DNA from: Anaerolineales bacterium
Lineage (GTDB): Bacteria; Chloroflexota; Anaerolineae; Anaerolineales; JBHHUI01
DNA length: 64,000 nt
NCBI GenBank assembly: GCA_965248775.1
Contig: OZ252150.1
Coordinates: forward strand, 3,988,042 to 4,052,041
Direction: 5' to 3'
Position 1 is the stretch's first letter. The number at the start of each line of letters is the position of its first letter. Below are positions 1,720-46,859 of this stretch, one piece after another. The translations under genes and the position numbers were made by a program. Under the pieces are notes generated by a model. It worked only from the letters and a program-made list of their open reading frames with translations. It did no database searches and was not told the DNA's origin.

Positions 1720-2052
1720 ATGGCAAAGCCCGTAAATGTTTCTGACGCCGAATTTGAGAACACAGTTTTGAATTCAGACTTGCCGGTCATAGTGGACTTT
1801 TGGGCCCCCTGGTGCGGTCCGTGTCGCATGGTCGCACCGGTACTTGAGGAACTTGCCGCCGAGTTTGATGGCAAGCTCGTCGTCGCAAAAGTGAACACAG
1901 ACGATAATCCGGAGTGGGCAATGAAATACGGTGTGCAAGGCATCCCGACAATGCTCTTCGTGAAAGACGGTGAAGTGCAGGATCGCATTGTTGGCGCCGG
2001 CCCGGCTCCCATGATCCGTGAGCGCCTCGATGCCCTGATATCATTGAATTAA
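1720..2052 (+). CDS. trxA: thioredoxin
   Basis: WCGPC active site; 110 aa; RBS GAGGAGG at 1701-1707. Confidence 0.9.
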   Translation: MAKPVNVSDAEFENTVLNSDLPVIVDFWAPWCGPCRMVAPVLEELAAEFDGKLVVAKVNTDDNPEWAMKYGVQGIPTMLFVKDGEVQDRIVGAGPAPMIRERLDALISLN

Positions 2053-8468: not shown

Positions 8469-9951
8469 CAATACCTTTCAAATAAGCAAACAGGTGGCAC
8501 CCGAGGCATACTTGTGAGATATACAAATTCGCAAGATGCCAGGGGGCCACCTGATGGGATACAGATTACGCGAGGTTGACATCGAGAGCAAGTTTTGCCG
8601 GGAACTGACATTTACAAGCCTGAGCCGGGTTATTCCGCCAGATGTGGTCGAAGCAGCGTTGGAGGCAGAAGGCTTGAAAACGCAACGCGAGCGCAAATTG
8701 AATCTGGTCGTGACAGTGTTTTTAATCATCACAATGAACATCTACACGCAATCTTCTCTGGGGCGGGTAATGCGTAAGATCGCCCAGGGGTTGCGGTACA
8801 TCTGGAACAATCCGGAATACGCGGTACCGAAAGACAGTGCGATTACCTATCGGCGCTATCAACTGGGTGCTCGACCGGTCGTGCGTTTGTTTCGGCATGT
8901 ATGTCGACCGATAGCTACGACGGAGACAGCCGGCGCGTTCCTCTTTGGATTGCGCCTGATGGCCATCGATGGCACGGTTGAAGATGTGGCTGACACGCCG
9001 GAGAATGCGGCGGCTTTTGGACGGCACCACAGCCCGCGCGGCCAGAGCGCTTTTCCGCAGGTGCAAGGGGTGTATCTGGTCGAGTGCGGCACGCATACGA
9101 TTGTCGATGCGGGCTTCTGGCCTTGCCACACCAGCGAGCGCATAGGTGGTTTTCGCCTGTTGCGCTCGGTCGAGATGGGCATGTTGGTGATGTGGGACCG
9201 TGGGTTTCATGATTATGACATGCTGCGCATGGTTTTGGAGCGCGGGGGACACATTTTGAGCCGATTTCCAGCCCATGTCAAGCCTAAAAACCGCTGTCCC
9301 TTGCCAGATGGCTCCTACACCGCCTACCTGACCCCCTCCGACTACCAGCGCCGCAAGCGGGGCGAGCGCCTCCTGGTGCGCATCGTCGAATACACCATAA
9401 GTGACCCGGCACTCCCCGGTTACGGTGAAGTGCACCGCTTGGTTACCACCTTGCTGAACCCCGAAGCCTTCCCAGCCCTGGAACTCGCGCGAGCTTATCA
9501 CGAACGCTGGGAAATCGAATTGGTCATCGATGAAGTCGACACCCATCAACGTCTGGCCGGACGCCCGCTGCGCAGTCTCAAGCCGGTCGGGGTCATTCAG
9601 GAACTGTATGGCCTGCTCATCGCACACTTCATCATCCGCTTCCTGATGCATGCGGCTGCCCAACGCACCGGTCTCGATCCCGACCAACTCAGCTTTGTGC
9701 ATGCACTCGAACTCGTGCGCGACACGCTCGCCGAGTTTCAAAAGACGGCCGTTGACCAACTCGGCCAACTCTATGACCGCTTGTTGCATGACATCGCTGA
9801 CGTTCGTCTGCCTCTCCGCCGTGCCCGTTCAAACCCGCGTGTAGTCAAACGCAAGATGTCAAAGTTCCGCCTGAAACAGCCGGAGCATTATCACTGGCCC
9901 CAACCCCGACAACCTTTCCGGCAAGCTTTGGCCCTTATTTGAAAGGTATTG
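8469..9951 (+). mobile_element. IS4-family insertion sequence (1483 bp). Perfect 18-bp terminal IRs CAATACCTTTCAAATAAG at 8469-8486 and 9934-9951. 10-bp TSD CAACTAAATC at 8459-8468 and 9952-9961.
   Basis: IRs and TSD read directly from the sequence. A single DDE transposase ORF lies inside. Confidence 0.85.
8536..9942 (+). CDS. IS4 family DDE transposase (468 aa)
   Basis: YHERWEIE...K motif typical of the IS4/IS10/IS50 Y-R-E-K signature; conserved D residues (MAIDGT, VMWDRGF). Confidence 0.8.
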   Translation: MPGGHLMGYRLREVDIESKFCRELTFTSLSRVIPPDVVEAALEAEGLKTQRERKLNLVVTVFLIITMNIYTQSSLGRVMRKIAQGLRYIWNNPEYAVPKDSAITYRRYQLGARPVVRLFRHVCRPIATTETAGAFLFGLRLMAIDGTVEDVADTPENAAAFGRHHSPRGQSAFPQVQGVYLVECGTHTIVDAGFWPCHTSERIGGFRLLRSVEMGMLVMWDRGFHDYDMLRMVLERGGHILSRFPAHVKPKNRCPLPDGSYTAYLTPSDYQRRKRGERLLVRIVEYTISDPALPGYGEVHRLVTTLLNPEAFPALELARAYHERWEIELVIDEVDTHQRLAGRPLRSLKPVGVIQELYGLLIAHFIIRFLMHAAAQRTGLDPDQLSFVHALELVRDTLAEFQKTAVDQLGQLYDRLLHDIADVRLPLRRARSNPRVVKRKMSKFRLKQPEHYHWPQPRQPFRQALALI

Positions 9952-11892
9952 CAACTAAATCATAGTGTAAGCGTCGTTCCGACGACAAGTATCCGTATCT
10001 TTGCCAGGGCCTCAGTGCTCGCCTCGCTGGCGGCGGCGCTCCTTTCATTAGGACTCGCCACAATGCTTTACCGACGCAAATTTGCAGAACCAGCTGCGGC
10101 CGCGCTTTCTTTTTATCTGTTGATCTTTGGAATTGCGATGGCCGGCCCTTTGGAGGCAGCGAGCGTCTACTGGACCGGTGGCATGTCAGCCGCGCTAGCT
10201 TTGCAGACTATCCTGCTCGCAACCCCCACAGTTGCCTTATTGCTGCTGTTTCCGAGCGGTGCGTTTGTTCCGACCTGGACGCGCTGGGTATTCGCGCTGA
10301 CTATCCCATGGAACGTCTTATTGATCTTCGTACCCGTTTACAATTCGGTCGCGATCTCGCAGCAACCTGGATTATTTGTAGCTTACACCACCCTCTGGAT
10401 CTGTTTCATGGGCGTTGGCATCTACGCGCAGATATATCGTTATAGACGCGTCGCGGGCCTCGCCGAACGCCAGCAAACGCGTTGGGTGCTGTACGGTTTC
10501 GCTATCTGGTTTGGGATCATATTGCTAACGGCAGGCCCGTACTTCTATTTGGAGGGTCTACCACCGGACGCACCCAGCCCATGGTGGGTACCTGCAAGCG
10601 AACTCGTGTGGTTTCTGAGTCTGAACATCCTTCCGATCTGTCTCACAGTGGCGATCACGCGCTACCGATTGTGGGACATTGATCTCGTCGTCAACCGCAC
10701 ACTCGTCTACGGTGCATTGACCGCCGGCGTGGTCGTGCTCTACTTCGGCGGCGTCGTCGGACTGGGACTGTTGTTCCAACCTGCGAACAATCTACTCATC
10801 CCACTCCTCACAGCTGGTTTGGCGGCCGTGGTCTTCAACCCGTTGCGCGTTCGACTGCAAGGGACTATCAACCGTATGATGTATGGGGAGCGGGACGACC
10901 CGGTGGCAGTGTTGTCCCGCTTGAGCACGCAGCTGGAGATGACAGGTTCACCTACCGACGCTCTCAACAGTATTGTCGAGACCATCACTCAAGCACTCAA
11001 GTTACCCTATGCCGCCATCGAGTTAAGAGAAGGAACGAAACCGGCAGCAACTTTTGGTGTCCCGACGAATGAATTACAACGCTTTGCTCTTGTCCATCAG
11101 GGCGTAAATGTGGGCCAGATGGTCGTTGCTACCCGAGCAGCGCAGGAACCTTTCAATCCCAAAGACCTGCGCTTACTCAAGAATATGGCCCAGCAAGCTG
11201 GTGCGGCTGCCCATGCAGTCCGTCTGACAGCCGACCTGCAATACTCACGCGAAAGGCTCGTGACAGCCCGGGAAGAAGAACGTCGACGTATCCGGCGCGA
11301 TCTACACGACGGGCTGGGTCCCACGCTTGCGGTACAAGCCCTCAAACAGGAAGAAGCCCTCGAGGCGTTGTCCGACGACCCGGCTGGCGCCCGCATCTTA
11401 CTGGAGGAACTTAATACAGAGACACAGCAGCTGTTGACCGACGTGCGCCGCCTGGCTTACGATCTGCGCCCGCCGGCGTTGGATGAACTCGGGTTGGTCG
11501 CTGCCGTCCGAGAGCAGGCAATTCAAATGCTCCAGGGCGCGAATGGCTTACGAGTGGATGTGCATGCTCCGCCTGACCTACCCGAATTGCCGGCGGCCGT
11601 CGAAACGGCAGCCTATCGCATTGCGGTGGAGGCCATATCCAATGTAGGCCGCCATACCAAAGCACAAATTTGTACGGTGCGATTCAAACTTTCTAATGAA
11701 ATGTCTGCCTTACACTTCGAAGTTGAAGATGACGGCCAGGGAAATACACACGATCTACGGGCTGGAGTCGGGCTGACTTCGATGAAGGAACGCGCTGAAG
11801 AATTAGGTGGCCACTTGACCATTGAGAACAGCTCGCCGAGAGGTTTGATTGTCCGAGCGGTACTGCCTGTTCCGGTGCGAGGGAATGGATGA
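9952..11892 (+). pseudogene. sensor histidine kinase (multi-TM N-terminal domain, GAF-like region, HisKA_3 + HATPase_c), 3' part of the IS4-disrupted gene
   Basis: H-box RRDLHDGLGPTLA (NarX/HisKA_3 type) and C-terminal G-box (GVGLTSMKERAEELGG). It is followed by a LuxR-type response regulator. Confidence 0.8.
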
Positions 11893-16160: not shown

Positions 16161-17578
16161 GTGGGTCACTTGGCACGGACATCGCCATAAAATGAATCGG
16201 GCTTTAGAATTGGCTGCATCCTTGATCACATAGGTGATGAAATGAGCCGACGCAAGAAAGACCCGCTTCGTGAACTGACGAAGGAAGAGCGGGAATGGCT
16301 GGAACGTATTGGCCATTCGCAGACGGAGCCTGCTAGTCATGTCGTTCGCGCCCGACAGATTCTGTTCGTGGCGGATGGGAACAATTACACCGAGGCCGCG
16401 CGCTTGTCGGGTCGGAAGTCCGGTGACGCGGTCTCGCAGTTGGTCAGCCGTTTCAACCGGGAAGGCTTGGCGGCCCTCGAGCCAAAGCATGGGGGAGGAC
16501 CTCAGGTGACGTACGGGGCAGAAGAGCGCGAGCGCATTCTGCAGGAAGTGCGCCGACCACCCATTCCGGAGACAGACGGGACGGCGACGTGGTCGCTGCA
16601 AACTTTGCAGCAACGGTTGCGCTCGATGCCGGATGGCTTGCCCGAGGTGAGCACCTATACCATCTGGACGGTGTTGCAGGAAGCCGGCTACAGCTGGCAG
16701 CAGTCGCGCAGCTGGTGCGAAACCGGCCAAGCAACACGCAAGCGAAAGGGCGGCACTGTTATTGTGACCGACCCAGATACCGAGGCGAAAAAAACTTGAT
16801 CGAAAGCGCCTACCATACTGGCGAAACGCTCGGCCTGGCCGTCTGGACCCAAGATGAAGCCGGACCTTATCAGACCAAGCCATATGTGGGGGGCAGCTGG
16901 CAGCCCGAGGCGCAGCCGGCCAAACAGCCGCACGAGTACATCCGCGACGGAACGGCAAAATTGCTAACACTATTTCACCCGGCTTCTGGACAAGTGCGCG
17001 TGAAAGGCGTCACGCGTACTACCAATGCTATTTTGCATCCATGGCTCAAGGACGAACTGTTGGCTATCCTGCAGGCATTGCCGGCCAAACCCCAACTCGA
17101 CGTTGAAGCCAATCGCCTGCTATGGGAAAGCTGGCAAGCCGGATTATCGTTGCCCATCACCTTGTCGCAAGAACTTCCAGCTCTGCGCATGCTACTCATC
17201 TGGGATAACCTCAAAGGCCATTACACTCCGGAGATGGTTCTGTGGTTGTTCGAACACGGCATTATGCCGCTGTATACACCGTTGGGCGGCTCGTGGTTGA
17301 ACATGGCTGAATCGATGCAGCGAATTCTCGTTCGGCGTGGCCTGTCCGGCCAGTATCCGCAAACACCTGATCAATTCATTGCCTTGTTACAAGGCGTCGC
17401 GCAGGGTTGGAACCAGAACCCCACTCCGTTTGAATGGGGCGGCAAACGTAAGGCACGTCGCCAACGCAGTCGGCAGCGGCGGCACATGCTCGGTGGTTCC
17501 GGCGCGTACACTCGGCATCCGATCCGCCGCCGCTCAACGCTGATCCAACAATGGCAATCAGCATGCCAAGTGACCCAC
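16161..17578 (+). mobile_element. IS630-family insertion sequence (1418 bp). 15-bp perfect terminal IRs GTGGGTCACTTGGCA at 16161-16175 and 17564-17578. Flanking TA at 16159-16160 and 17579-17580.
   Basis: TA target duplication and IR structure typical of IS630/Tc1-mariner elements; seen directly. Confidence 0.85.
16242..16799 (+). CDS. IS630 transposase N-terminal (HTH) part, ORF A
   Basis: Helix-turn-helix region. It ends just after an A7 run at 16788-16794. Confidence 0.75.
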
Positions 17579-22482: not shown

Positions 22483-23259
22483 TTAAAGCGGCGAACTTGT
22501 CACACCTCCATCAAACATGAGTGCGTGACCATGAATAAAGGAGGCCGCCGGCGAGGCCAGCCAGGCGACGGTGCGCCCGAATTCTTCAACCGTGCCGATG
22601 CGCCGCAGTGGAATGCTCGCAGCGGCTTGCTCCATCTCTTCATCCATCGACGTGCCCTTATCCGTCATACTATTACGCAACAATTGCTCAACCCGGTCGG
22701 TGTAGGTGAAGGTTGGGTTGATCGAGTTGACCCGGATCCCATCCGGGCCGAGTTCGTTCGCCATCGATTTCAGTAAACCGATTACCGCGAGCCGGATCGA
22801 GTTTGAAAGGATCAAATTGTCGGCGGGTTGTTTAATCGACACTGATTCAATCGCGACGATGCTGCCTGTACCGCGTTCAACCATGTGCGGTACCACGGTG
22901 TAGCAGGCGCGCACGGCGCTCATAAATGTAAGCTGTACGGCCGCTTCCCAGTCCTGCGGCTTGAGCGAAAGCAACGTTCCGGGCGGCGGGCCACCGGCGT
23001 TGATCACCAGAATGTCGATCTGACCGAACTCGGCGAGGGTTGCCTCGACTACACTGGCGATATCTTTCTGCATCGTTACGTCGGCCCGCACAGCGAGCAC
23101 CTCCGCACCGGTCTCCACACGGATGGCTTCGGCAGTTGTTTCCAATGCATCACTACGCGCACAGATAGCCACACGCGCGCCTTCAGCCGCGAGGGCTTGA
23201 GCGCTCGCCCGACCCAGACCCTTCGACGCGGCCATGACGAGTGCGACTTTATCTTTCAA
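22483..23259 (-). CDS. SDR-family oxidoreductase (3-oxoacyl-ACP reductase-like)
   Basis: N-terminal GxxxGxG Rossmann motif (MAASKGLGRA) and SDR-like catalytic region. Convergent with ppdK (8-bp spacer). Confidence 0.8.
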   Translation of the reverse strand: MKDKVALVMAASKGLGRASAQALAAEGARVAICARSDALETTAEAIRVETGAEVLAVRADVTMQKDIASVVEATLAEFGQIDILVINAGGPPPGTLLSLKPQDWEAAVQLTFMSAVRACYTVVPHMVERGTGSIVAIESVSIKQPADNLILSNSIRLAVIGLLKSMANELGPDGIRVNSINPTFTYTDRVEQLLRNSMTDKGTSMDEEMEQAAASIPLRRIGTVEEFGRTVAWLASPAASFIHGHALMFDGGVTSSPL

Positions 23260-23314: not shown

Positions 23315-23788
23315 TCACAAATCTTTCATCTCCAGCGAGGTAGTAATCGCAACGCAATCTCGGATCGTGCGCGCCACCGGACAATAGTCTGCGTGAAAGC
23401 CATGCGTATGTTCGGCCAGCTCGCGCTTCTCCGGGTCGAGCTTCAGATGATAGCGGACATGGATGCGCTTGATGACAAGCACCTTCCCATCCTTCTCGAT
23501 CTCGCCCATAGCCTCGGATGTCAGATAGCCTTCCCCGGCCGGAATTTTGCGCGCTTCCAGCGCGCCCCCGAAGGTTCCGGTCAGTCAACCTGCTGTAGAG
23601 GCAACAACATAGTCGAGTGTTGTGGAATGCGGATCTTGTTGCGTCATATCGGTGCCGTAGTGCTCAGCGACTTCGGCATGCACGCCGAAGTGCACCGGTT
23701 CGGTCTCAACTGGTAAATAGGCGCGGCGATGTGGTCCTTTCACGCGTTCGATGCGCACGTTGGATCGATAGACAACTTCGTCTGTCAT
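23315..23788 (-). CDS. OsmC/Ohr-family peroxiredoxin with an in-frame TGA (complement 23585-23587) at the conserved peroxidatic-Cys position. It is either a selenoprotein candidate or a pseudogene.
   Basis: A single reading frame covers the two ORF-track pieces: ...TLDYVVASTAG-[TGA]-LTGTFGGALEARK...HADYCPVARTI. The second conserved Cys (YCPV) is present. A GC-rich hairpin begins 4 nt after the TGA. Confidence 0.55.
23537..23580 (-). promoter_or_regulatory. candidate bacterial SECIS-like stem-loop in the mRNA immediately 3' of the in-frame UGA
   Basis: mRNA CCGGAA-CCUUCGGGG-GCGCGC-UGGAA-GCGCGC-AAAA-UUCCGG: a 6-bp inner stem plus a 6-bp outer stem, starting 4 nt downstream of the UGA. Confidence 0.4.
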
Positions 23789-23887
23789 GATGCTCTCCTT
23801 TATTAGAGTTGGGGAGTTACTGTAAGTCGATGGTACGCGACGAAATGACGAGCGTCAAGAGCAAGCCGAGGTGAATGAACCGCGGGA

Positions 23888-24514
23888 TTAATCCGTGTAC
23901 AAGATGACGATGAAGCGCCCCGGGCCATGAACGCCGATTGCGAGTGTTACTTCAATATCGGCCGATTTACTCGGACCGCTGATGACGTTTACATTGGCGG
24001 GCATTCCACCCTGGCGGGCTGCTGTCCACGTGAATATGTCGGCCGTCAAAGCCGAGGTCGGCACCAGGGCAATGTGCACAGGCGGCAGCAAGGTCGCCAG
24101 CCGGCTCCGTCCAGGACCGCTACTTACAATAATGCTGCCGGTCTCAGCCAGGGCTGCGTCGGCGCCGCTCAGCCCTACGTCGGCGCGGGCGCAGAAGGCG
24201 CGCAAATCGTCGGCAGTCTCCCCAACGATATGCCATTCCAGTTCCGGCCAGCGTTGCGTCAGCCGCGCATCGGAAAGCGGCGGCTCGGCGTTGGCGACGA
24301 CGGTGCGGGCGTTCAGCTCGCGGAGCAGTTTACCGAGTGCGTCCCAAGCCACCGCCAGGCTTGGCGCGCGGACAACCTCGCCTTTTGCAGCAGTCAGCGC
24401 AGATTCGAAACGCCCGGCAGGGTCGCCAAAATCTCGCCGCGAAACCCAGGCCGGCGGCATTTCCTGTTCGCGTGCCAGACCACGCAGTTGCTCAAAGATC
24501 GATTCGCGCGCGCT
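23888..24514 (-). CDS. lutC: lactate utilization protein C (LUD/LutC family)
   Basis: LUD-domain sequence. GTG start overlaps the lutB stop (GTGA) and is preceded by GGAGG. The longer 260-aa ORF-track call extends upstream into lutB and is rejected. Confidence 0.7.
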   Translation of the reverse strand, partial: SARESIFEQLRGLAREQEMPPAWVSRRDFGDPAGRFESALTAAKGEVVRAPSLAVAWDALGKLLRELNARTVVANAEPPLSDARLTQRWPELEWHIVGETADDLRAFCARADVGLSGADAALAETGSIIVSSGPGRSRLATLLPPVHIALVPTSALTADIFTWTAARQGGMPANVNVISGPSKSADIEVTLAIGVHGPGRFIVILYTD

Positions 24515-25926
24515 CACTCTTTTGCCTCCAATTCGCCGGCCTGCCACATTGTGCGGAAGGAACGCTGCGCCAGGCCGGGCATACGGCGACCCACCGTCGG
24601 GTCGAGCCCGCGGGGCAGATGTAACTGGCCGTCGCGCAAAAATATCCCTTGCAAGCGGCGGAATATCCATGTGACAAATCGGAGCAGGCGCTCGTGGGCG
24701 AGCACGACGCCTGCAGCTTCCTCAACTTTGCGTTCGGGCCAGGGGATCACGCCTTCGCGCACCTCCGTCTCGCGCAGCGCCAGCAGCATGCGCGGTAGGT
24801 CGATGCGCACTGGACAGATGTCTTTGCAGGCCTGGCACAATGAACAGGCGTGCGGCAACGCCTCGTACTCGCGCAATCCCGAGTACAGCGGCGTAATCAC
24901 TGAGCCGATTGGGCCGTTGTACGGACTGCCGTAGGCATGCCCGCCGGCTTCGCGGTAGACCGGGCACACGTTCAGGCATGCACCGCAACGAATGCACTGC
25001 AATACCTCTTCGTATTCTCCACCGATCTGTCGGCTGCGACCGTTGTCGAGAAAGACAACGTGCACCTCGCGCGGGCCGTCCGGGTCTTCGTTACGCGCCG
25101 GGCCGCTAATGATGCTCGTATAAACCGAGAGTGGTTGCCCGGTTGCGCTGCGCGCTAGTAAAGCCAGCCAGGCGGCAGCGCCATCCCATGTAGGCACGAC
25201 TTTTTCGATTCCGATCACGGCCACATGCACAGGCGGCGCCGAAGTGACCAGTCGGCCATTGCCCTCATTCGTAACCAAGACGACGCTGCCGGTCTCGGCG
25301 ATGGCGATGTTGCCTCCGGAAATCCCCATTCCGGCTGCCAGGAATTTCTCACGTAGCACGCGGCGCGCTTCGGCGGTGAGCATGGCGATGTCGTCCGGCG
25401 CCAACGAGCGCCCGGCGGCCTCTGAAATTAATTCGGCGGCTTGCTCGCGAGTCTTGTGAATCGCCGGGCCGATGATATGAAAGGGCGGTTCCTGCGCAAG
25501 TTGGATGATCCACTCACCCAAGTCGGTCTCTACCGGCTCAACGCCGACGGTCACAAGCGCGTCATTCAAATGGATTTCCTCGGTCGTCATCGATTTACTC
25601 TTCGTCGCCAGCGTCACCCCGTGCTCCTCGGCTATGTCAATGACGATCTTGCGCGCAGCCTCGCCCGTGGAGGCCCAATGGACGTTCACACCGGCCGCGA
25701 CTGCATTTCGTTCAAATATCTCCAGGTACCGAGCGAGATCGGCCAGCGTGCGGGCACGAATACTTTTGAAATGATCGCGGAGCTTCTCAGAGTCGGGGAG
25801 TTCGGCCAGCGCCTGCCTACGGGCACCCAACAGGTTGCCCGTGGCAGTGTCCAGCGCGCCCTGCAGCCGGATATCCTCTATGGCGATTGTGGCTTGTTGG
25901 CGGAATTGCGGAAATGTGGCCGTCAT
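24514..25926 (-). CDS. lutB: lactate utilization protein B (4Fe-4S ferredoxin domain + LUD/DUF162)
   Basis: CIRCGACLNVCPVY and CSLCQACKDICPV ferredoxin-type clusters. 470 aa. Confidence 0.85.
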   Translation of the reverse strand: MTATFPQFRQQATIAIEDIRLQGALDTATGNLLGARRQALAELPDSEKLRDHFKSIRARTLADLARYLEIFERNAVAAGVNVHWASTGEAARKIVIDIAEEHGVTLATKSKSMTTEEIHLNDALVTVGVEPVETDLGEWIIQLAQEPPFHIIGPAIHKTREQAAELISEAAGRSLAPDDIAMLTAEARRVLREKFLAAGMGISGGNIAIAETGSVVLVTNEGNGRLVTSAPPVHVAVIGIEKVVPTWDGAAAWLALLARSATGQPLSVYTSIISGPARNEDPDGPREVHVVFLDNGRSRQIGGEYEEVLQCIRCGACLNVCPVYREAGGHAYGSPYNGPIGSVITPLYSGLREYEALPHACSLCQACKDICPVRIDLPRMLLALRETEVREGVIPWPERKVEEAAGVVLAHERLLRFVTWIFRRLQGIFLRDGQLHLPRGLDPTVGRRMPGLAQRSFRTMWQAGELEAKE

Positions 25927-26651
25927 CGAGAGGCCGCCTCCAACAACGTGGCGATGTGCTCGACCTGCAGGCCGTCTTCAGGAGCAAGGCTGCGCATCTG
26001 GATAATACAGCCCGGATCGGCCGACGCTAGGATCGGCGCGCCGCTCTCAACCGCCTGAGCGACTTTTTCGATCGTCATCGCGTTGGAGACTTCCGGCATG
26101 CGCAGGGAAAAGAGGCCACCGAATCCACAACAGCGGTCGGACTCACGCATTTCATTCACGCGGTGGCCGGCGGCGGCGAGCAACTTGCGCGGCTCTGCGC
26201 CAAGCTGCAACATGCGGCACATGTGGCACGAATCGTGGTAAGTCACCTCGGGTGCGGAGGCTGCTCTGGCCGGCGTCCAACCAGCCTGCTCGACCAGGAA
26301 TTCGCTCAGCTCAAAGGTTTTTTCCGCCAGCATTTTGGCGCGGTTGTGCCAATCCGGCCACGGCTCCAACAGGTGGGGATATTCGATGCGAAGCATCGCC
26401 GTACACGAACCGCTCGGCAGCACCACCGCTGGATAGTCACCGAGGATGTCAACCGTCCGCTTGGCAAGTCGCACGGCTTCGTGCGCGTGTCCGCTATTGT
26501 GGAAGGGCTGCCCGCAGCAGGTCTGCGCGGCCGGAAACTCGACCTTGTAGCCCGCCCGTCGCAGGAGCTGCAGGGTGGCAACGCCGACCTCCGGCAGCAC
26601 CTGGTCGACCAGGCATGTTACAAATAAAGCAACTCGTCGCGCCTCGGTCAT
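25923..26651 (-). CDS. lutA: lactate utilization protein A / (Fe-S)-binding CCG-domain oxidoreductase
   Basis: Two cysteine-rich CCG motifs (CCGQPFHNSGH; CCGFGG). Overlaps the lutB start. Confidence 0.8.
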   Translation of the reverse strand: MTEARRVALFVTCLVDQVLPEVGVATLQLLRRAGYKVEFPAAQTCCGQPFHNSGHAHEAVRLAKRTVDILGDYPAVVLPSGSCTAMLRIEYPHLLEPWPDWHNRAKMLAEKTFELSEFLVEQAGWTPARAASAPEVTYHDSCHMCRMLQLGAEPRKLLAAAGHRVNEMRESDRCCGFGGLFSLRMPEVSNAMTIEKVAQAVESGAPILASADPGCIIQMRSLAPEDGLQVEHIATLLEAASR

Positions 26652-32749: not shown

Positions 32750-32787
32750 GTCACGACCCAGTTCATTCGTGACTGGGTGACTGGGTG
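32750..32787. repeat. palindromic repeat copy B (GTCACGACCCAGTTCATTCGTGACTGGGTGACTGGGTG) just upstream of tnpB
   Basis: Imperfect palindrome; same core as copies A, C, D and E. Confidence 0.75.
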
Positions 32788-33186
32788 GGGACAGCCCCGC
32801 CGATTGAAACAGATGATTCGAGTACACATACTTATGTCGAAGATAAGCCGCGAACAGGCTGACGCGCTCAATCAAGAGAGTGGTCGTATCTATACCAGCG
32901 TAATGGTCGAACACTGGCGCGTCTACAAGAAAGGTCGCGGTCATTGGCTGTCACGTGGGGCTGCCGAGAGATACAACGATTATCTCGGTGGCCCAACTAG
33001 CCTGCACGCTCACAGCCGAGACGCGGCCCAACAAGGATTCTATAAAGCTTGCAAGGTTGTAAAAGCACAACGCAAAATGGGACTGAACATACGTTATCCC
33101 TGGCGACGCAAGTTCTACCGGACAACGATCTGGAAGAACACCGGTATCTCACTCAAGAGCAATATGCTAGGGCTTGCCCTGGCGCG

Positions 33187-33296
33187 CGGCCACCCCGTCC
33201 AGTCCTGTCCGGGACTGGGTGAGCCGATCATCATGACCCAGTGCATTCACCCAGTCACGAATGAACTGGGTCGTGATGACTGGGCGCTCAAGCTAC
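33187..33296 (+). repeat. palindromic element copy C (~110 bp) inserted in-frame in tnpB (encodes ...GHPVQSCPGLGEPIIMTQCIHPVTNELGRDDWA)
   Basis: Contains CCAGTCC-TGTCCG-GGACTGG and ACCCAGT...ACTGGGT hairpins. It is near-identical, in inverse orientation, to copy E (34-nt match CGGCCACCCCGTCCAGTCCTGTCCGGGACTG). Confidence 0.7.
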
Positions 33297-33661
33297 CGCG
33301 CAATCTGGCAAGGTTCGAGAACGAGAATTTCAAAGAAGTCCGGCTGGTCTACAACAAGAGCTGCCGCCGTTACTACTGGCATGTCGTCATTGAAGATGCT
33401 CGCCAGCCCGGAAAGCCAACTGGGAACGGCATCGCCGGGATCGACCTGGGCGAGATACATCCGGTCGCCATCACGGACGGGACGAACGGCCTGGTCATTT
33501 CCTGCCGCGAAATGCGAGCAACAAAGCAGTACACGAGCAAACGGCTGGCAACTTTGAAGCGCCTGCAAAGCAGCAAACAAAAATACTCTCGGCGCTGGTG
33601 GCGAATACAGCGCCGCAGCAATCGGTTCCTTGCGCAACAGGCAAGTCGAACCCGAGACATG

Positions 33662-33747
33662 GAACACCCAGTCATCACGACCCAGTTCATTCGTCATGAC
33701 CCAGTACATTCATGACTGGGTGACTGGGTGAATGCACTGGGTCATGA
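33662..33747. repeat. palindromic element copy D (double hairpin) inserted in tnpB; introduces the only in-frame stop (TGA 33713-33715)
   Basis: CACCCAGTCATCACGACCCAGTTCATTCGTCATGACCCAGTACATTCATGACTGGGTGACTGGGTGAATGCACTGGGTCATGA. Confidence 0.7.
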
Positions 33748-33844
33748 CAAGGTCAGTCGCGCAGTGATCGACTGGTGCCTTGAAAACGGTATCGCTGAGA
33801 TAGCTATCGGCAATGTTAGAGATATTGCAGACGGCAAACGCCTT

Positions 33845-33936
33845 CATCGGAAGAGTCAACACCCAGTCACAAACGCACTGGGTCGTGAAAAACTCTCGAA
33901 CTGGGCGCACACAGTCCCGGACAGGACTGGACGGGG
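33845..33936 (-). repeat. palindromic element copy E (inverse orientation of copy C) inserted in-frame in tnpB
   Basis: The reverse complement matches copy C over the CGGCCACCCCGTCCAGTCCTGTCCGGGACTG block and the ACGACCCAGTGC core. Confidence 0.7.
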
Positions 33937-34431
33937 TGGCCGAATGCGCAAATATATCAGCTACAAAGCCGAGGCCGAAGGTATCGCCGTTTTCGACAAG
34001 GTGGACGAACGCTATACCAGCCAAACATGCCCTGAATGCGGCCAGCGGCACAAGCCACGCGGACGGGTTTACAAATGCCCCCATTGCGGTTTCGTCGGCG
34101 TGCGTGATATTGTCGGCGGAGCCAATATCAAGAGCAGGCATGTTCATGGCGAACTAGCGAAAGTCGCAGCACCTTGTCCAAAGTATCGTAAACCTTTTCC
34201 CCGTCCAGAACCAGACGGGACTGGGCAAAGAGGCTTGCGTAGTCGCGCGGACACCGCGAACTTGGCTTGGGATTGAATAATCCCAGGAAGCCCCCGGCTA
34301 CCCCCCGGTGGGCAGTGTCACGAGAAACCAATATTGGTCATTGGCTCAGCCGGGTTTGAGATCATTGCTGGTGCGCAGTATTTAGTTGCCGGTATTCAGT
34401 GATCAAGCAGCAGGTTACCGATTACTGAAAA

Positions 34432-35395: not shown

Positions 35396-36729
35396 TAGGA
35401 ATGAGAATTAAATAACTTGTGCAAATGGGAGAGCGCGGTAATTCCATCGGGGCAAGAAATCATCAAAGATAATGCGCATGTTGTCCCTGAAATCTGTGGC
35501 TACTTTACGACCGGTTTCGTAGACCTGGTCAATAACATGGACAAAAGCTTTCAGTCCGGTCTTGGTGCTGGTTTTTTCCATCAGTTCTTTGACGAGTTTG
35601 CGGCTGGTGAAGATCACGCCTTGGCAAGCGCGGGTAACATGCGGGAAGAAACGGTGTTCGCTGGGGTTGTATTTCGAGCAATAGGGTGGATAGTGAGCAA
35701 TGCGAATTTCGACCCCGATTTCATCGGCCAGTGCTTGCAAGTCTTGCTTGAAGATGTAGTAGCGGGAACTGTTACTCCCGCCGCCATCGCAAAGCACGAG
35801 AATAGAAGTGGCGTTGGGATAGTGGTAGTGGCCGTATGTGTACCACCAATGGCGAAAGCTATCGCAAGCGAATTCACTGGTATCATGACTGCCGCCGAGT
35901 TGGATGTAGCCGACATTGAGACGCAAGTCGTAGAGACTGTGAGGAATGCTGACCCCAGCAGCATAGCTGTTGAAATCATGGTCATAAGTTTGCAGTTCTT
36001 CCAGGGTGTACAAATGTCCGTCTCGGTAGAAATTGCCCAGATATTCCTTTTTCTTGCTGTCCATGCTGACAATGGGATTGCCCGCCGCTTCGAATTCGGT
36101 CTTGAGCCGCGTGATGTTCTCAAATTGCTCGTTGCGGTTTTCAATCTCGGCCTTCAAACCGAGTTTCTTTTGCGCTTTTCGGCGGCGATAGTTGTGCTTC
36201 TGCAGCAACTTGCGCACCACATATTTGCTGACCACGATGTCGTGCTCGGCCCGCAACGCCGCAACAATCTCGCCCGGGGTCAGGTTCGTCCAGCGCACCC
36301 TCTCGTCCATCGGGTCACCGGCTGTGTGCTCGCGCAACACTGCCAGGAACTTCTCAGCAAGTTGCGCCCCCCATGTGACGTAGTACGGTTTGCGTCCGCC
36401 GCCTGGCTTCCGAATGCGCTGCTCCACTTCGCCCTTGGGCAAGCCACTGACTTCGCGGGCGCCTTTGCTCACCGTGTTGCGACTGCACCCCAACACCCGC
36501 GCAATGTAACTCCGTCCGCCGTGTCCAAATCTCAAGGCTTCGAAACCAGCAAAGCGACGCCCATCTTTCTCGTTCAAGCTGTTGTAAAAGCGGCGCATCA
36601 TTTCTTCATGTTCGGGCGCATAGGGTTTCATCATGGCCTCCTGGCTAGTGTTCTGATGAAGCCAAGAGAATATCACTGCTTGCATCCGTTGTGAACCAAC
36701 TGCCCAAATTATTTAATTCTCGTTCCTTA
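35396..36729 (-). mobile_element. ISAzo13-family (ISNCY group) insertion sequence, ~1334 bp, with ~20-bp imperfect terminal IRs (TAGGAATGAGAATTAAATAA / TTATTTAATTCTCGTTCCTTA)
   Basis: IRs seen directly at 35396-35415 and 36709-36729. A single ISAzo13-type transposase ORF lies inside. Confidence 0.7.
35408..36685 (-). CDS. ISAzo13-family transposase (Rhodopirellula-type DDE; likely start MMKPYAPE)
   Basis: Characteristic N-terminal HTH (YIARVLGCSRNTVSKG) and DDE region (VSMDSKKKE...LCDGGGSNSSRYY...PPYCSKYNPSEHR). Confidence 0.75.
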   Translation of the reverse strand: MQAVIFSWLHQNTSQEAMMKPYAPEHEEMMRRFYNSLNEKDGRRFAGFEALRFGHGGRSYIARVLGCSRNTVSKGAREVSGLPKGEVEQRIRKPGGGRKPYYVTWGAQLAEKFLAVLREHTAGDPMDERVRWTNLTPGEIVAALRAEHDIVVSKYVVRKLLQKHNYRRRKAQKKLGLKAEIENRNEQFENITRLKTEFEAAGNPIVSMDSKKKEYLGNFYRDGHLYTLEELQTYDHDFNSYAAGVSIPHSLYDLRLNVGYIQLGGSHDTSEFACDSFRHWWYTYGHYHYPNATSILVLCDGGGSNSSRYYIFKQDLQALADEIGVEIRIAHYPPYCSKYNPSEHRFFPHVTRACQGVIFTSRKLVKELMEKTSTKTGLKAFVHVIDQVYETGRKVATDFRDNMRIIFDDFLPRWNYRALPFAQVI

Positions 36730-43131: not shown

Positions 43132-44460
43132 TTGACTGCCGATCATCCCTTCCGATTCTCGCGCGATGGCCTGCTTGGATTACCGGCATCCCCCACGCTG
43201 GTTATCAACGATCGCATCAAAGAAATGATGGCCGCCGGTCAGGAGGTCTTTCATCTCGGCTTTGGTGAGTCGCGCTTCCCCGTGCATCCACTGCTGGCGC
43301 GCGCATTGCAAGATAACGTTCACAAGCGCAGCTACCTGCCGGCGCTGGGCATTCCTGAACTGAGAGCGGCCATCGCCGCATATTATTCCAACAAATTTGA
43401 TCGTCCAATCTCTCCAGAACAGGTCGTCATCGGTCCAGGTAGCAAAGCTTTGCTTTTCGCGCTCATGCAGGCGCTGGATGCGGACATCGTGCTACCGACT
43501 CCGGCTTGGGTATCCTATGGAGCGCAGGCGCAGTTGGCCGGACGCCCGATACTGCAAGCGCCAATGGACCCCGCGGCGGATTATGCGCTGGATGTCGACC
43601 GTCTTGCTCACGCCATTGATCAGGCCAACACAGAATGGCGCCAGCCCGACCTGCTACTACTCAACACACCCAACAACCCGACCGGTACTGTAATGTCGGC
43701 TGAGACAGCAAAAGCAGCAGCTGAGTTTGCACGCGAACACAAGATGGTGATCTTCAGCGACGAGATTTACAGCCTCGTCACACACCCGGATGTGGCATTT
43801 GCCTCACCGGCGCAATATTACCCTGAGGGCACGATTGTATTCGGTGGACTGAGCAAACATATGTCGTTGGGAGGCTGGCGATTTGGGCTGGCGATTCTTC
43901 CCTCCGGGGAAGCAGGGACTCAGCTCGCACGGGCATTGCAGGCCATTGCCGGCTGCACCTGGTCGTGTGTCGCGGGGCCGGTCCAGTATGCTGCTTTGGA
44001 GGCTTATCGCGGCAGTCCCGAAATCGAAAACTATATCGAAGCCTCCACTCGCCTGCACAGCGCGCGCACAAACTATCTCTACGAAGCATTTGAGGAATTT
44101 GGCCTGACATGCCCCGCGCCACAGGGAGGCTTTTATTTGTATCCATCCTTCGCGCGCTGGCGGGAGCCATTGGCAGCCCGCGATGTGAATACCTGCCAGG
44201 ACCTCTCCATGCATCTGCTCGATCGTTATCAAATTGCCATTCTGCCCGGCTCCTCCTTTGGGGACAACCCGCACGCCTTGGCATTGCGCGTCTCCACCAG
44301 CTATCTCGATGCCGAGACGGACGAACAAGCGACAACACTCATGGAAGCCTTTCAGAAAAATGGTAGCCCCGAGAATTTTATTCAAGACCACAACCCGCGC
44401 CTACGCCAGTTAACCGAGCGTATCGCCGGTTTTATTGGTGAACTTGAAGGTGAACTATGA
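43132..44460 (+). CDS. PLP-dependent aminotransferase, class I/II
   Basis: Fold-type I aminotransferase. Conserved NPTG (LNTPNNPTGTV) and the lysine region (GGLSKHMSLGGWRFG). Confidence 0.8.
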   Translation: MTADHPFRFSRDGLLGLPASPTLVINDRIKEMMAAGQEVFHLGFGESRFPVHPLLARALQDNVHKRSYLPALGIPELRAAIAAYYSNKFDRPISPEQVVIGPGSKALLFALMQALDADIVLPTPAWVSYGAQAQLAGRPILQAPMDPAADYALDVDRLAHAIDQANTEWRQPDLLLLNTPNNPTGTVMSAETAKAAAEFAREHKMVIFSDEIYSLVTHPDVAFASPAQYYPEGTIVFGGLSKHMSLGGWRFGLAILPSGEAGTQLARALQAIAGCTWSCVAGPVQYAALEAYRGSPEIENYIEASTRLHSARTNYLYEAFEEFGLTCPAPQGGFYLYPSFARWREPLAARDVNTCQDLSMHLLDRYQIAILPGSSFGDNPHALALRVSTSYLDAETDEQATTLMEAFQKNGSPENFIQDHNPRLRQLTERIAGFIGELEGEL

Positions 44461-45705
44461 ACAACCGCGAAGTTGTAATTGTTGATGCTGTGCGCAGCCC
44501 GATTGGACGTGTGGGTGGCGTGCTTGCATCCGTGCGCCCCGATGATCTTTTGGCAGATGTCTTAGAGGCCCTTATCGAGCGCACTGGTGTCGACCCCGCA
44601 CTTGTCGAAGACGTATACGCTGGCTGCGGCAATCAGGCCGGTGAGGACAACCGAGACGTAGCCCGTATGGCACTACTGTTGGCTGGGTTTCCCAAGGAAG
44701 TCGGTGGAGTCACCGTCAATCGCAATTGCTCGTCTGGTTTGGAAGCCGTCAACCAGGCTGCGAAATCTATTCTGGTGGGCGAGGCAGACATCTTTATCGG
44801 TGCTGGTGTGGAGAGCATGAGTCGTGCGCCGTGGTCGCTGCCCAAGCCGGAGAAGGCCTATGCGGTCGGCCAGCCCAAACTATACGATACGACTGTGGGC
44901 TGGCGTTACGAGAATCCACGCATGGATGCCCTGTATCCAATTATTAGTCTGGGTGAGACAGCCGAAAACATCGCCGAAGAGATGAACATCACGCGCGAGG
45001 AACAGGATGCTTTCTCCGTGGAGAGTCATCAGCGGGCGGTCAACGCAATCAATGCTGGAAGGTTTCGGGATGAAATCGTCCCCATTCTTGTTGCGCAACG
45101 CAAAGGGGATGCGATCGTTGTCGATACTGACGAACATCCACGTTATCGACGCGACAACGGCCACTACGAACTCGATACCAGTATGGAGAAAATGGCGAAA
45201 TTGCGTCCATCCTTCCGAGAAGGTGGCACCGTCACGGCTGCTAGTTCGAGTGGTATCAACGATGGCGCAGCAGCGCTCATGCTGATGACCCGCCAGAAGG
45301 CCGACGAACTGGGACTCAAACCCATGGCGCGCTGGCTCGGCGGTGGCTGGCGTTGACCCCGGCGTGATGGGTTTTGGACCTGTTCCCGCAACGAAGAAGC
45401 TGCTCAAGCGACTTGACCTGAGCGTGGCTGACATTGGTCTCGTCGAGATTAACGAGGCCTTTGCAGCCCAGACGATTGCCGTGATGCACTTGCTCGATCT
45501 AAGCCCGGAGATCACCAATGTCAATGGTGGCGCCATAGCATTGGGGCATCCGTTAGGCTGTTCCGGCGCGTGCATCCTGACCACACTGTTGCACGAAATG
45601 AAGCGCCGCGCACCGGACGAGCAAGAGCCTTACCGTGGTCTGGCAACATTGTGTGTCGGGGTTGGGCAGGGCGTCTCGACGCTTGTGGAGTTCATTGGAG
45701 ATTAG
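44457..45705 (+). pseudogene. acetyl-CoA C-acetyltransferase (thiolase) with a frameshift near 45320-45345
   Basis: N-terminal thiolase (active-site Cys region NRNCSSGLEA). The C-terminal block ([18 protein letters not shown]) is in the other frame. The shift lies in the GC-rich stretch gcgctggctcggcggtggctggcg. Confidence 0.75.
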
Positions 45706-45759
45706 AGATGGGTGACTGGAGATGAATCTCCCATCCCAAGCTCCTATTCGGAATCATAC

Positions 45760-46155
45760 ATGAATCAACAGCGACCCTTATCCGGCATCCGCGTAATTGG
45801 ACTCGAACAGTACATGAGCGCGCCCTACTGCAGCATGTTACTTGCAGATGCCGGAGCCGAGGTGATTAAGATCGAACGTCCCGGCAGCGGCGATCCGCGA
45901 CGGGCAATTCCCCCCTTTGCGGAAGGCAAGAACGGCAACCGCAAAGCGGGTGGCTTCATGGCTTACAACCGCAACAAGAAGAGCCTGGCGCTCAACCTGC
46001 GCAGCGACTCTGGAAAAGAAGTGCTCAGAAAACTGATTGAGAAATCGGATGTGGTCGTTGAGAACTTGCGTCCAGGCGCAATGGACAAGCTGGGCCTGGG
46101 CTACAAAGCGCTGCAAGAACTCAACCCGCGCCTGATTTACGCTGCCATCTCAGCG
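45760..46155 (+). pseudogene. CoA-transferase family III (CaiB/BaiF) gene, N-terminal ~130 codons only
   Basis: LSGIRVIGLEQYMSAPYCSMLLADAGAEVIKIERPGSGD is the family N-terminus. Homology stops after ...RLIYAAIS (~46152). Confidence 0.7.
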
Positions 46156-46859
46156 CGGGAGACGCACAAGTGCTGCAGAGTGTTTTCGATCCGGTCACTG
46201 GAGCACTCACCCCCGCAGACGAATTGTGGCTGATTGATAAAACCGGGCAACTCAAAACATACACTAGCAATGGAGAGATTGCGTTGGTGGATATGCCGGC
46301 TGCAACACGCGCTGACTGGACGATCAGTGTTACCCGCATGCCCGACGAGACCATGTGGGTCAGTAGCGCGACGAGCGTGAGCGTTCACAACCCGGATTCT
46401 GGTCACTGGCAGGTTTACGATTCCATCCAAACCGGTCTGCAAGGCCCGATTGTTGAACTCGAGCGCGCGCCTGACGGAACTGTTTGGGGCTTACAAACGC
46501 ATACATTCGAAGAACCTATCTGGCGAAGTTGGGGCGTCAGCGCTTTGCAACCCACCGCAGATGGTGACTGGATGAACATTAATATGCGCCAATTAACCGG
46601 CCTCGAAGCGCCCACCACTCCCGATGCTCTCGCCACAGACGGTTATGGTCGTCTGTGGTTTATTGCTGAATCTTGTTATCTCAGCAAACGCTATATTGGA
46701 ATTCTAAATCCTGACGGCACTCTTGTCGAACTGGTGACCATCGGCGAACTAATCAACGAGCCGTATGGCATATTACCGGATGGTGCTGGTGGCGTTTTTC
46801 TGTACTACGGTAAAGAGGAGCCGTTGCGCCGTTGGATGCCGGCCTCACAAAAACAGTAG
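46150..46859 (+). pseudogene. C-terminal fragment of a beta-propeller (two-component-regulator-propeller/Y_Y_Y-like) protein, joined to the CaiB stump
   Basis: No start codon and no N-terminal domain. The frame is open only from 46062. Repeated D-G-x-hWh-style propeller blades. Confidence 0.5.

Follow-up and report, generated by a model that had tools for sequence, protein, structure and literature searches.

We describe a gene of the OsmC/Ohr superfamily that is interrupted by an in-frame TGA in a 64,000-nt stretch of an Anaerolineales bacterium genome (assembly GCA_965248775.1, contig OZ252150.1, positions 3,988,042 to 4,052,041 of the forward strand; hereafter the window). We read it as a functional selenoprotein gene in which the UGA at codon 68 specifies selenocysteine (Sec), with a probability of roughly 0.87. 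A preceding reading of the DNA letters (the sequence-only reading) had proposed a candidate selenoprotein at this site. That proposal is supported here by a UGA that is conserved among homologs, by the pairing of Sec with Cys at the same column, by coding constraint that runs through the UGA and continues downstream of it, by RNA-level constraint, particular to the UGA clade, on a downstream hairpin, and by an OsmC fold with the codon in the catalytic column.

The gene is a single 157-codon frame whose sole internal stop is the TGA (Table 1). Translation bears out the earlier claim that the two pieces returned by an open reading frame (ORF) lister, of 67 aa (23585-23788) and 64 aa (23315-23509), share a frame and form one gene joined by the TGA. 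The stop lies in the context VVASTAG--LTGTFGGALEAR (in longer context TTLDYVVASTAG--LTGTFGGALEARKIP) and the HADYCPV motif with Cys136 is uninterrupted downstream of it, as had been noted. The N-terminus MTDEVVYRS lines up with the starts of full-length homologs, which are 73-75% identical to the window protein. The exact N-terminal piece is on record as a 67-aa fragment, thus the source annotation cuts the gene off at the TGA.

A comparison with orthologs carrying TGA or TGC at this codon had been suggested by the sequence-only reading and provides the strongest argument. A protein search returns 671 homologs. In the first alignment, most close homologs have Trp at the TGA column and two entries of 89-90 aa start just past it. 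The DNA behind two of the Trp entries and behind one split gene in a metagenome-assembled genome (MAG) of KSB3 has an in-frame TGA at the column in all three cases. Trp at this column is thus a gene-calling artefact, which apparently stems from the code-4 model chosen by metagenome gene callers on short contigs. About 100 metagenome database entries carry this Trp at an active-site column, and the two that were checked (L001, L003) cannot be translated with table 11. Among the 120 best protein homologs, the column holds Trp in 99 (TGA wherever the DNA was checked), Cys in 11 and Ala, Leu, Gly or Arg in two each, and the gene is split at the column in another two. Cys is the main alternative to Sec and accounts for about 10% of homologs. 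A genome scan with one genome per species yields 80 loci from Anaerolineae and other Chloroflexota, Desulfobacterales, NC10, Poribacteria, Latescibacterota, Acidobacteriota, Nitrospirota, Gemmatimonadota and others. Together with three other contigs these make up 83 related loci from more than eight phyla, and the codon is TGA in the window and in every one of them.

The protein downstream of the TGA is conserved as well. TFGGALEAR is invariant in the window and all 83 loci, as is LTGTFGGALEAR directly after the Sec residue. In comparison to the nearest relatives, the segment downstream of the TGA has a proportion of nonsynonymous differences (pN) of 0.07-0.20 and of synonymous differences (pS) of 0.5-0.97. 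The ratio of nonsynonymous to synonymous rates (dN/dS) is thus at most about 0.2 downstream, and the same bound holds upstream. TGA is the commonest stop codon in the window and ends 20 of 38 genes, which indicates the standard genetic code; a general reassignment of TGA (code 4 or 25) is rejected on this ground.

The joined 157-aa product, with Cys placed at the stop, matches the Pfam OsmC profile PF02566 with 43.5 bits (gathering threshold 27.5), residues 58-150 aligning to profile positions 9-99. The sequence-only reading had proposed this alignment as a check on its claim that the TGA replaces the first catalytic Cys, and the UGA column does coincide with that of Cys59 in Escherichia coli OsmC. 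Pfam position 19 is shared by U68, OsmC Cys59, YhfA Cys47 and the Cys of the homologs P0074 and P0094, and position 85 by C136 of the window protein, C125 of OsmC and C113 of YhfA; this column mapping assumes no gaps over 10-17 helical residues. Alignment of the family profile to YhfA by hhalign agrees and pairs both Cys columns, albeit as a weak match (E = 0.015), while hhalign with E. coli OsmC pairs C136 with C125. One alignment, to Bacillus subtilis OhrB, is offset by four residues and is discussed below.

Structural comparison points to the same position. In an AlphaFold2 model of P0032, the closest Cys homolog at 59% identity (predicted local distance difference test score 92.6), residue 68 lies 11 residues into helix 57-78. 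We take the catalytic Cys of OsmC, going by its sequence, to have the same 11-residue helix spacing. A Foldseek search with this model, which represents a homolog and not the window protein itself, gives 63 matches in the PDB at E <= 0.001. The 50 matches listed are all of the OsmC, Ohr or YhfA type, with a best template modeling (TM) score of 0.83 at 10-18% identity. A direct PDB sequence search with the window protein finds no match at E up to 1, and a profile search of the PDB gives only marginal hits to OhrB and Ta0195. On conservation rather than residue-level superposition, the nearly invariant R21 and the invariant D59 are candidates for the equivalents of the catalytic Arg and Glu. A further conserved feature of the family is an extension of about 55 residues at the N-terminus (VVYxSxVRIERxxGPxRRAYLP..FGVHSEVAEHYG).

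Next to the UGA, the RNA reads CUGA and then CCGGAA-CCUUCGGGG-GCGCGC-UGGAA-GCGCGC-AAAA-UUCCGG (23539-23580). RNAfold gives both tiers of the hairpin that the sequence-only reading had described, whose boundary at 23537 was set 2 nt too far. In the single sequence this hairpin is only moderately unusual. The fold of 71 nt has z = -0.82 against dinucleotide shuffles, and among 1908 TGA sites of the window it ranks in the top 5% by minimum free energy and, for an uninterrupted G-C stem at the distance of a selenocysteine insertion sequence (SECIS), in the top 1%. The z value and the top-5% rank are too weak by themselves, and we dropped single-sequence hairpin energy as evidence; the significance of the hairpin comes from comparative data.

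These data are based on a gap-free alignment of the 66 nt from the UGA in 83 sequences, with pairing scored on the 82 distinct ones. Of the cells in the upper stem (columns 23-28 with 34-39), 99.8% are paired, with variation only between G-C and G-U, and the RNAalifold consensus for the 66 nt contains no other helix. The core can be summarised as GCGCGC-UGGAR-GCGCGY. The lower tier pairs in 81% of cells, its wobble-position pairs being unpaired in 31-60 of the 82 sequences, and its covariation is modest (25 double-change cells versus 15 +/- 3.4 in shuffles). As a conserved element the lower tier thus appears weakly supported. Of the hairpin described from one sequence, strict conservation is limited to the upper 6-bp stem and loop, whereas the lower CCGGAA/UUCCGG tier is often broken in relatives, at wobble positions.

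Synonymous sites within the upper hairpin are frozen. Counted from the UGA, Ala+8 is GCG, Leu+9 is CTG and Ala+11 is GCG in 83 of 83 sequences each (entropy 0). Gly+7 is only GGC or GGT and Arg+12 is CGC or CGT in 82/83, C and T both being able to pair with G. Elsewhere in the gene, Ala is encoded by any of its four codons (1.6-1.75 bits). In Leu+9, the third base (23558) is an unpaired loop G and yet an invariant synonymous site, which fits the conserved guanosine in the apical loop of bacterial SECIS elements (PMC1088965). Moreover, the lock is absent from an unbiased set of Cys forms, retrieved by a metagenome pattern that fixes the amino acids only and leaves synonymous sites free (21 hits, 19 of them true homologs; a stricter first pattern for Cys forms had returned no hits). 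The codons GCG, CTG and GCG at +8, +9 and +11 occur in 84/84 TGA forms versus 0/19 Cys forms (Fisher 4e-21), the Cys set being mostly one more distant Cys clade. In this set Leu+9 is written in five codons, and Ala+11 is GCT in 11, GCG in five and GCC in three members. The codon usage indicates that the hairpin core is under selection at the RNA level, specifically in the UGA clade and its close derivatives, and supports the earlier proposal of a SECIS just downstream of the UGA.

Sec appears to have been gained and lost within the family. The Sec state is found in about 85% of sampled members, and the forms with Cys, Leu, Gly, Arg or Ala look as if Sec had been lost secondarily in scattered members. 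In a rough neighbor-joining tree, Cys clades lie outside one large Sec clade, with the non-Sec loci L088, L089 and L090 nested inside it. The nearest neighbour of nearly every non-Sec form among the 120 proteins is a Sec form; P0055 (Cys), for instance, shares 89% identity with P0041, and P0093 (Gly) shares 86% with P0068. We infer that Cys is ancestral and that Sec was gained once and then lost sporadically by single-base changes which left fossil hairpins behind. An expectation that the hairpin occurs in UGA forms only fails for five of six close non-Sec homologs, namely three Cys forms and two Leu forms, which keep GGC/AGC-GCG-CTG-GAR-GCG-CGY. Because the nearest neighbours of such carriers are Sec forms, the retained hairpins are best explained, though not proven, as fossil elements.

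Replacements other than Cys at the Sec column comprise Leu in L090 (P0072) and L091 (P0079), with the codon TTA in both, and Gly and Arg among P0087, P0093, P0101 and P0105. TTA is one base from TGA, and the same distance would hold for the Gly and Arg forms, provided that their codons are GGA for Gly and CGA or AGA for Arg. The Leu, Gly and Arg forms, devoid of the catalytic residue, keep Cys136, and the Leu forms keep the SECIS hairpin. In L087, a Cys form (TGT) from a Pyrinomonadaceae MAG, the hairpin (1198-1263) is lengthened to 10 bp (GGUGGCGCGC-UGG-AGGCGCGCCAC). A 10-bp stem without UGA is odd for a decaying fossil, and the intactness of the fossils is partly unexplained.

An OsmC-like selenoprotein family has been described before, as the sequence-only reading noted, and is known from the Sargasso Sea and Global Ocean Sampling (GOS) data. 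It is the one Sec-containing OsmC-like family in the searchable literature, with a UxxT motif and an assignment to COG1765/YhfA (PMC1088965, PMC2398784, PMC9312934, PMC13188914). Reviews cite MCS5647933.1 and MBR72571.1 as examples of it. The published family and the window protein share the PF02566 domain, Sec in place of the first conserved Cys, a SECIS hairpin right after the UGA and the existence of Cys homologs. However, with the corresponding model NF041052 ('OsmC-related (seleno)protein'), whose cutoff is 95 bits, the window protein reaches 13.9, and 69 family members reach at best E 1.2e-6, none near the cutoff. The motif differs too, since the window protein has G-U-L-T-G-T-F-G-G-A-L-E-A-R with G at +3 in place of UxxT. 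U-L-T-G-T is found in all TGA forms except L080 (U-L-I-G-T), which has G at +3 as well. The N-terminal extension is a further difference. Score, motif and extension together rule out identity with the published UxxT/COG1765/NF041052 family and place the gene in a separate, uncurated subfamily, different from the published one to which the sequence-only reading pointed.

The thiol peroxidases E. coli OsmC (TIGR03562) and Ohr (TIGR03561) share the fold (Foldseek TM 0.6-0.75) and the columns U68/Cys59 and Cys136/Cys125 with the window family, but have only 10-18% identity, Cys where the family has Sec, and curated scores far below cutoff. The window protein reaches 15.4 bits against 85.8 for OsmC proper (TIGR03562), and the best E-values among the 69 members are 1.7e-5 for OsmC (TIGR03562), 0.02 for Ohr (TIGR03561) and 1.6e-5 for SACOL1771 (TIGR03563), all below cutoff. 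Proteins of the YhfA/Ta0195 type (PDB 1ml8, 2onf, 2egt) are the best structural matches (TMt 0.74-0.83) and those in which hhalign pairs both Cys columns. In contrast to the window family, they carry Cys and lack the N-terminal extension; they have no known function and are 12-15% identical. The segment FGGALE (23560-23577, minus strand; residues 72-78) is common to the window protein and B. subtilis OhrB (PDB 2bjo), and reads C-FGGALE in Ohr versus U-LTGT-FGGALE here. It is thus four residues, or one helical turn, nearer to the catalytic residue in Ohr, which would correspond to a one-turn insertion or shift of the catalytic helix.

The hairpin resembles the E. coli fdhF-type SECIS in being a coding-region stem-loop directly 3' of the UGA whose small apical loop has a conserved G (PMC1088965). 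Unlike bacterial SECIS elements in general, its core matches no Rfam SECIS model and is nucleotide-invariant across phyla, because it overlaps an invariant peptide. The distance from the UGA to the stem is about 11 nt in the minimal E. coli SECIS and 19 nt in the window family.

In the mechanism that we consider most likely, UGA codon 68 would not be read as a stop during translation. The hairpin GCGCGC-UGGAA-GCGCGC, 19 nt downstream and with guanosines in its apical loop, would act as a bacterial SECIS that recruits SelB-GTP-Sec-tRNA(Sec) to the ribosome, such that selenocysteine is inserted; by analogy with other bacteria, insertion in this organism would depend on SelB. Sec68, 11 residues into the long central helix, is the predicted peroxidatic residue and Cys136 of the CPV motif the predicted resolving one. 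By analogy with OsmC and Ohr, the protein is likely to be a selenol/thiol hydroperoxide reductase in which Sec68 attacks the peroxide to give a selenenic acid. Cys136 would then form a selenenylsulfide, and a cellular dithiol (a lipoyl protein or thioredoxin) would regenerate the enzyme. A canonical thioredoxin gene lies in the window about 21 kb from the Sec-OsmC gene (1720-2052, plus strand; Pfam Thioredoxin 6.5e-32) and is a possible reductant, with no evidence of linkage.

The taxonomic setting is compatible with Sec use. The citrate synthase encoded in the window is 72% identical to those of Anaerolineales MAGs, and the GC content is 53-60%, which identifies the organism as an Anaerolineae-type Chloroflexota. 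The sequence-only reading considered a Sec-OsmC in this lineage unusual, yet the closest TGA-bearing homologs (72-75% identity) come from Anaerolineae-type Chloroflexota, where the family is commonest, and Chloroflexi are a known Sec-using phylum (PMC1794560, PMC5389517). Besides Chloroflexi, the family is present in the Olavius Delta-1 symbiont, a lineage with documented Sec use (PMC1976440). The 2007 selenoproteome of this symbiont lists no Sec-containing OsmC-like protein (PMC1976440), and its MAG (L063) carries a gene of the window family with TGA.

Several observations weigh against the selenoprotein reading. None of the approximately 58 Pfam-scanned ORFs of the window encodes SelA, SelB or SelD, and ARAGORN and Rfam find no tRNA, including tRNA-Sec, in these 64 kb; the reading assumes a Sec-competent source organism. 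The tRNA-Sec reported for Chloroflexi is of the 8/4 acceptor/T-stem type. A guess that the ORFs of 468 and 647 aa at 8536-11889 are SelA and SelB is rejected, as they encode an IS4 transposase and a histidine kinase. Rfam gives no SECIS hit in the window at gathering scores, nor any on 23400-23700 with the limit relaxed to E = 10. The stem has no double compensatory changes, which the invariance of the encoded peptide precludes, and its support comes from frozen synonymous sites instead of classical covariation. The persistence of the hairpin in three Cys and two Leu forms shows that it is not strictly tied to UGA. In an HMMER profile alignment to OhrB, Ohr Cys55 falls opposite T72, not U68, via FGGALE. 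We judge this catalytic offset of four residues to be a local FGGALE artefact, since U68 is favoured by the Pfam mapping, by the hhalign alignment with YhfA and by the position in the helix. Finally, frameshifted thiolase and CoA-transferase genes indicate that the assembly or the genome carries some defects.

The main residual risk is that the source genome has lost Sec decoding. The gene would then be a decaying relic of a real selenoprotein family, with translation stopping at codon 68, as might be suspected from the lack of Sec machinery in the window, from its other decayed genes and many transposases, and from the relatives with Leu, Gly, Arg or Ala at the codon, which show that Sec loss occurs in the family. 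Yet the window copy retains all invariant residues, the complete hairpin and a strong Shine-Dalgarno sequence, dN/dS is as low downstream of the TGA as upstream, and the branch of the gene in the family tree is not long. Furthermore, Sec machinery genes are few and need not fall in a given 64 kb of a 6.37-Mb chromosome. We therefore consider a relic unlikely. It is very unlikely that the GCGCGC hairpin is a by-product of the invariant GALEAR peptide, or serves in pausing or mRNA stability, with the functional SECIS located elsewhere. The amino acids alone fix four of the six stem pairs, Cys forms pair five of six, and the hairpin is retained in Cys and Leu forms and stretched in L087. However, neither the wobble positions completing the stem nor the unpaired loop G vary among the UGA forms (84/84), whereas both are free in the unbiased Cys forms (19/19). 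RNAalifold detects no second conserved helix over the 66 nt that follow the UGA, and the Sec nearest neighbours of hairpin-keeping non-Sec forms are what is expected of fossils.

Programmed readthrough of the UGA throughout the family by something other than Sec, for instance a near-cognate Trp or Cys tRNA helped by the hairpin, is another alternative. It accommodates the missing Rfam SECIS hit and the persistence of the hairpin in non-UGA forms, and Sec insertion is itself deduced indirectly. We nevertheless hold it to be highly unlikely, because the column is that of the superfamily's catalytic Cys with Cys as the main alternative (the classic Sec/Cys signature), the family occurs in known Sec-using lineages (PMC1976440, PMC1794560), and the hairpin has the position and loop G of a bacterial SECIS. 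The alternative kept by the sequence-only reading, a nonsense pseudogene or base-call error with TGC or TGT (Cys) as the true or ancestral codon, is not favoured. TGA is one substitution from either Cys codon and other genes of the assembly have frameshift-type defects. But a random error is hardly to be expected at a column where every examined locus has TGA, the window's other defects are of the indel rather than the substitution type, and the downstream frame is intact and under selection. The conserved TGA, the downstream constraint and the standard code together lead us to exclude pseudogene, sequencing error and codon reassignment, and we regard the residual chance of a Cys codon as minimal.

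With the gene read as a selenoprotein gene, a wider claim is that it represents an uncatalogued family, a clade of OsmC-superfamily peroxidases in at least eight phyla that is mostly Sec-containing, with a 17-nt SECIS core that is nucleotide-invariant because it overlaps an invariant peptide and that persists as a fossil after Sec loss. To this we would give even odds. The family is ordinary in kind and extends the Sec-using thiol peroxidases by an organic or hydroperoxide reductase that mostly contains Sec; the understanding of Sec decoding is unchanged by it. What sets it apart is the extreme overlap of protein and RNA constraint, with a SECIS core identical across phyla, and the occurrence of natural revertants, from Sec to Cys and from Sec to Leu, in which the hairpin is retained. 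If the family is indeed uncatalogued, it might offer a clean natural system for dating Sec loss and for testing if a SECIS that is at the same time an essential peptide-coding segment serves a second role. The gene is widely mis-called, as a 67-aa fragment in the source record, as a split gene in the KSB3 MAG and with Trp in about 100 metagenome entries, and the only curated Sec-OsmC model (NF041052) misses the family. A dedicated model would fix this widespread error and let the family be counted in the selenoproteomes of Chloroflexota, Desulfobacterales, NC10 and others.

Table 1. Coordinates of the Sec-OsmC gene, its parts and its neighbours in the window.
Feature	Position	Strand	Details
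Sec-containing OsmC-superfamily protein, coding sequence (predicted)	23315..23788	-	157 residues, Sec at 68; stop codon 23315-23317
Translation start	23786..23800	-	Shine-Dalgarno AAGGAG 23795-23800, 6-nt spacer, ATG 23786-23788; read off the sequence
UGA codon 68	23585..23587	-	read as selenocysteine, predicted peroxidatic residue; conserved TGA, Cys in homologs, OsmC profile position 19
Extended two-tier hairpin, window copy	23535..23584	-	CUG.CCGGAA paired with UUCCGG.CGG around the core; RNAfold
Candidate SECIS core	23549..23565	-	6-bp stem GCGCGC/GCGCGC, apical loop UGGAA; begins 19 nt after the UGA
Cys136 codon in HADYCPV	23381..23383	-	predicted resolving cysteine; Cys in 118/119 homologs reaching the column
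SDR (short-chain dehydrogenase) gene	22483..23259	-	55 nt downstream, co-directional; Pfam adh_short_C2 1.2e-53
lutC, lutB, lutA	23888..26651	-	lutC 23888-24670, lutB 24514-25926, lutA 25923-26651; upstream, co-directional; Pfam LUD_dom, LUD_dom + Fer4, CCG

The genes next to the Sec-OsmC gene do not form a conserved context with it. Pfam annotation agrees with the earlier statement that the gene is co-directional with lutABC and an SDR gene, all on the minus strand. A conserved operon with either is rejected, as an SDR ortholog lies 3' of the Sec-OsmC gene in one of 89 related loci (L057, 71% identity) and lutABC adjoins it in none of the 89. No neighbour gene recurs in more than 15 of 83 loci. 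The 99-nt spacer between lutC and the Sec-OsmC gene contains a sigma-70-like site (TTGACG-17-TACCAT, 23830-23858, minus strand), and the gene may have its own promoter; one such site was found versus 1.4 expected by chance, which is not significant.

The remainder of the window contains several interrupted genes. A second in-frame TGA (33713-33715) was noted in a TnpB (IS605 OrfB) gene at 32777-34273 on the plus strand, where the OrfB_IS605 domain lies in ORF 32777-33712 and a Cas12f1-like TNB domain in ORF 33728-34273 in a common frame; this gene is probably a nonsense pseudogene. On the plus strand at 44457-46856, a thiolase gene is split into overlapping N- and C-terminal ORFs (44457-45353 and 45343-45702) and a family III CoA-transferase gene into ORFs 45712-46230 and 46170-46856. 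Both splits look like frameshifts, due either to real decay or to indel errors of a long-read assembly. The stretch is rich in mobile elements, with transposases of five families (IS1, IS4, DDE_3, IS605/TnpB and ISAZ013) in 64 kb, located at 72-857, 8536-9939, 16589-17578, 32777-34273 and 35408-36682. A phosphoglucose isomerase fragment (878-1498) adjoins the IS1 copy.

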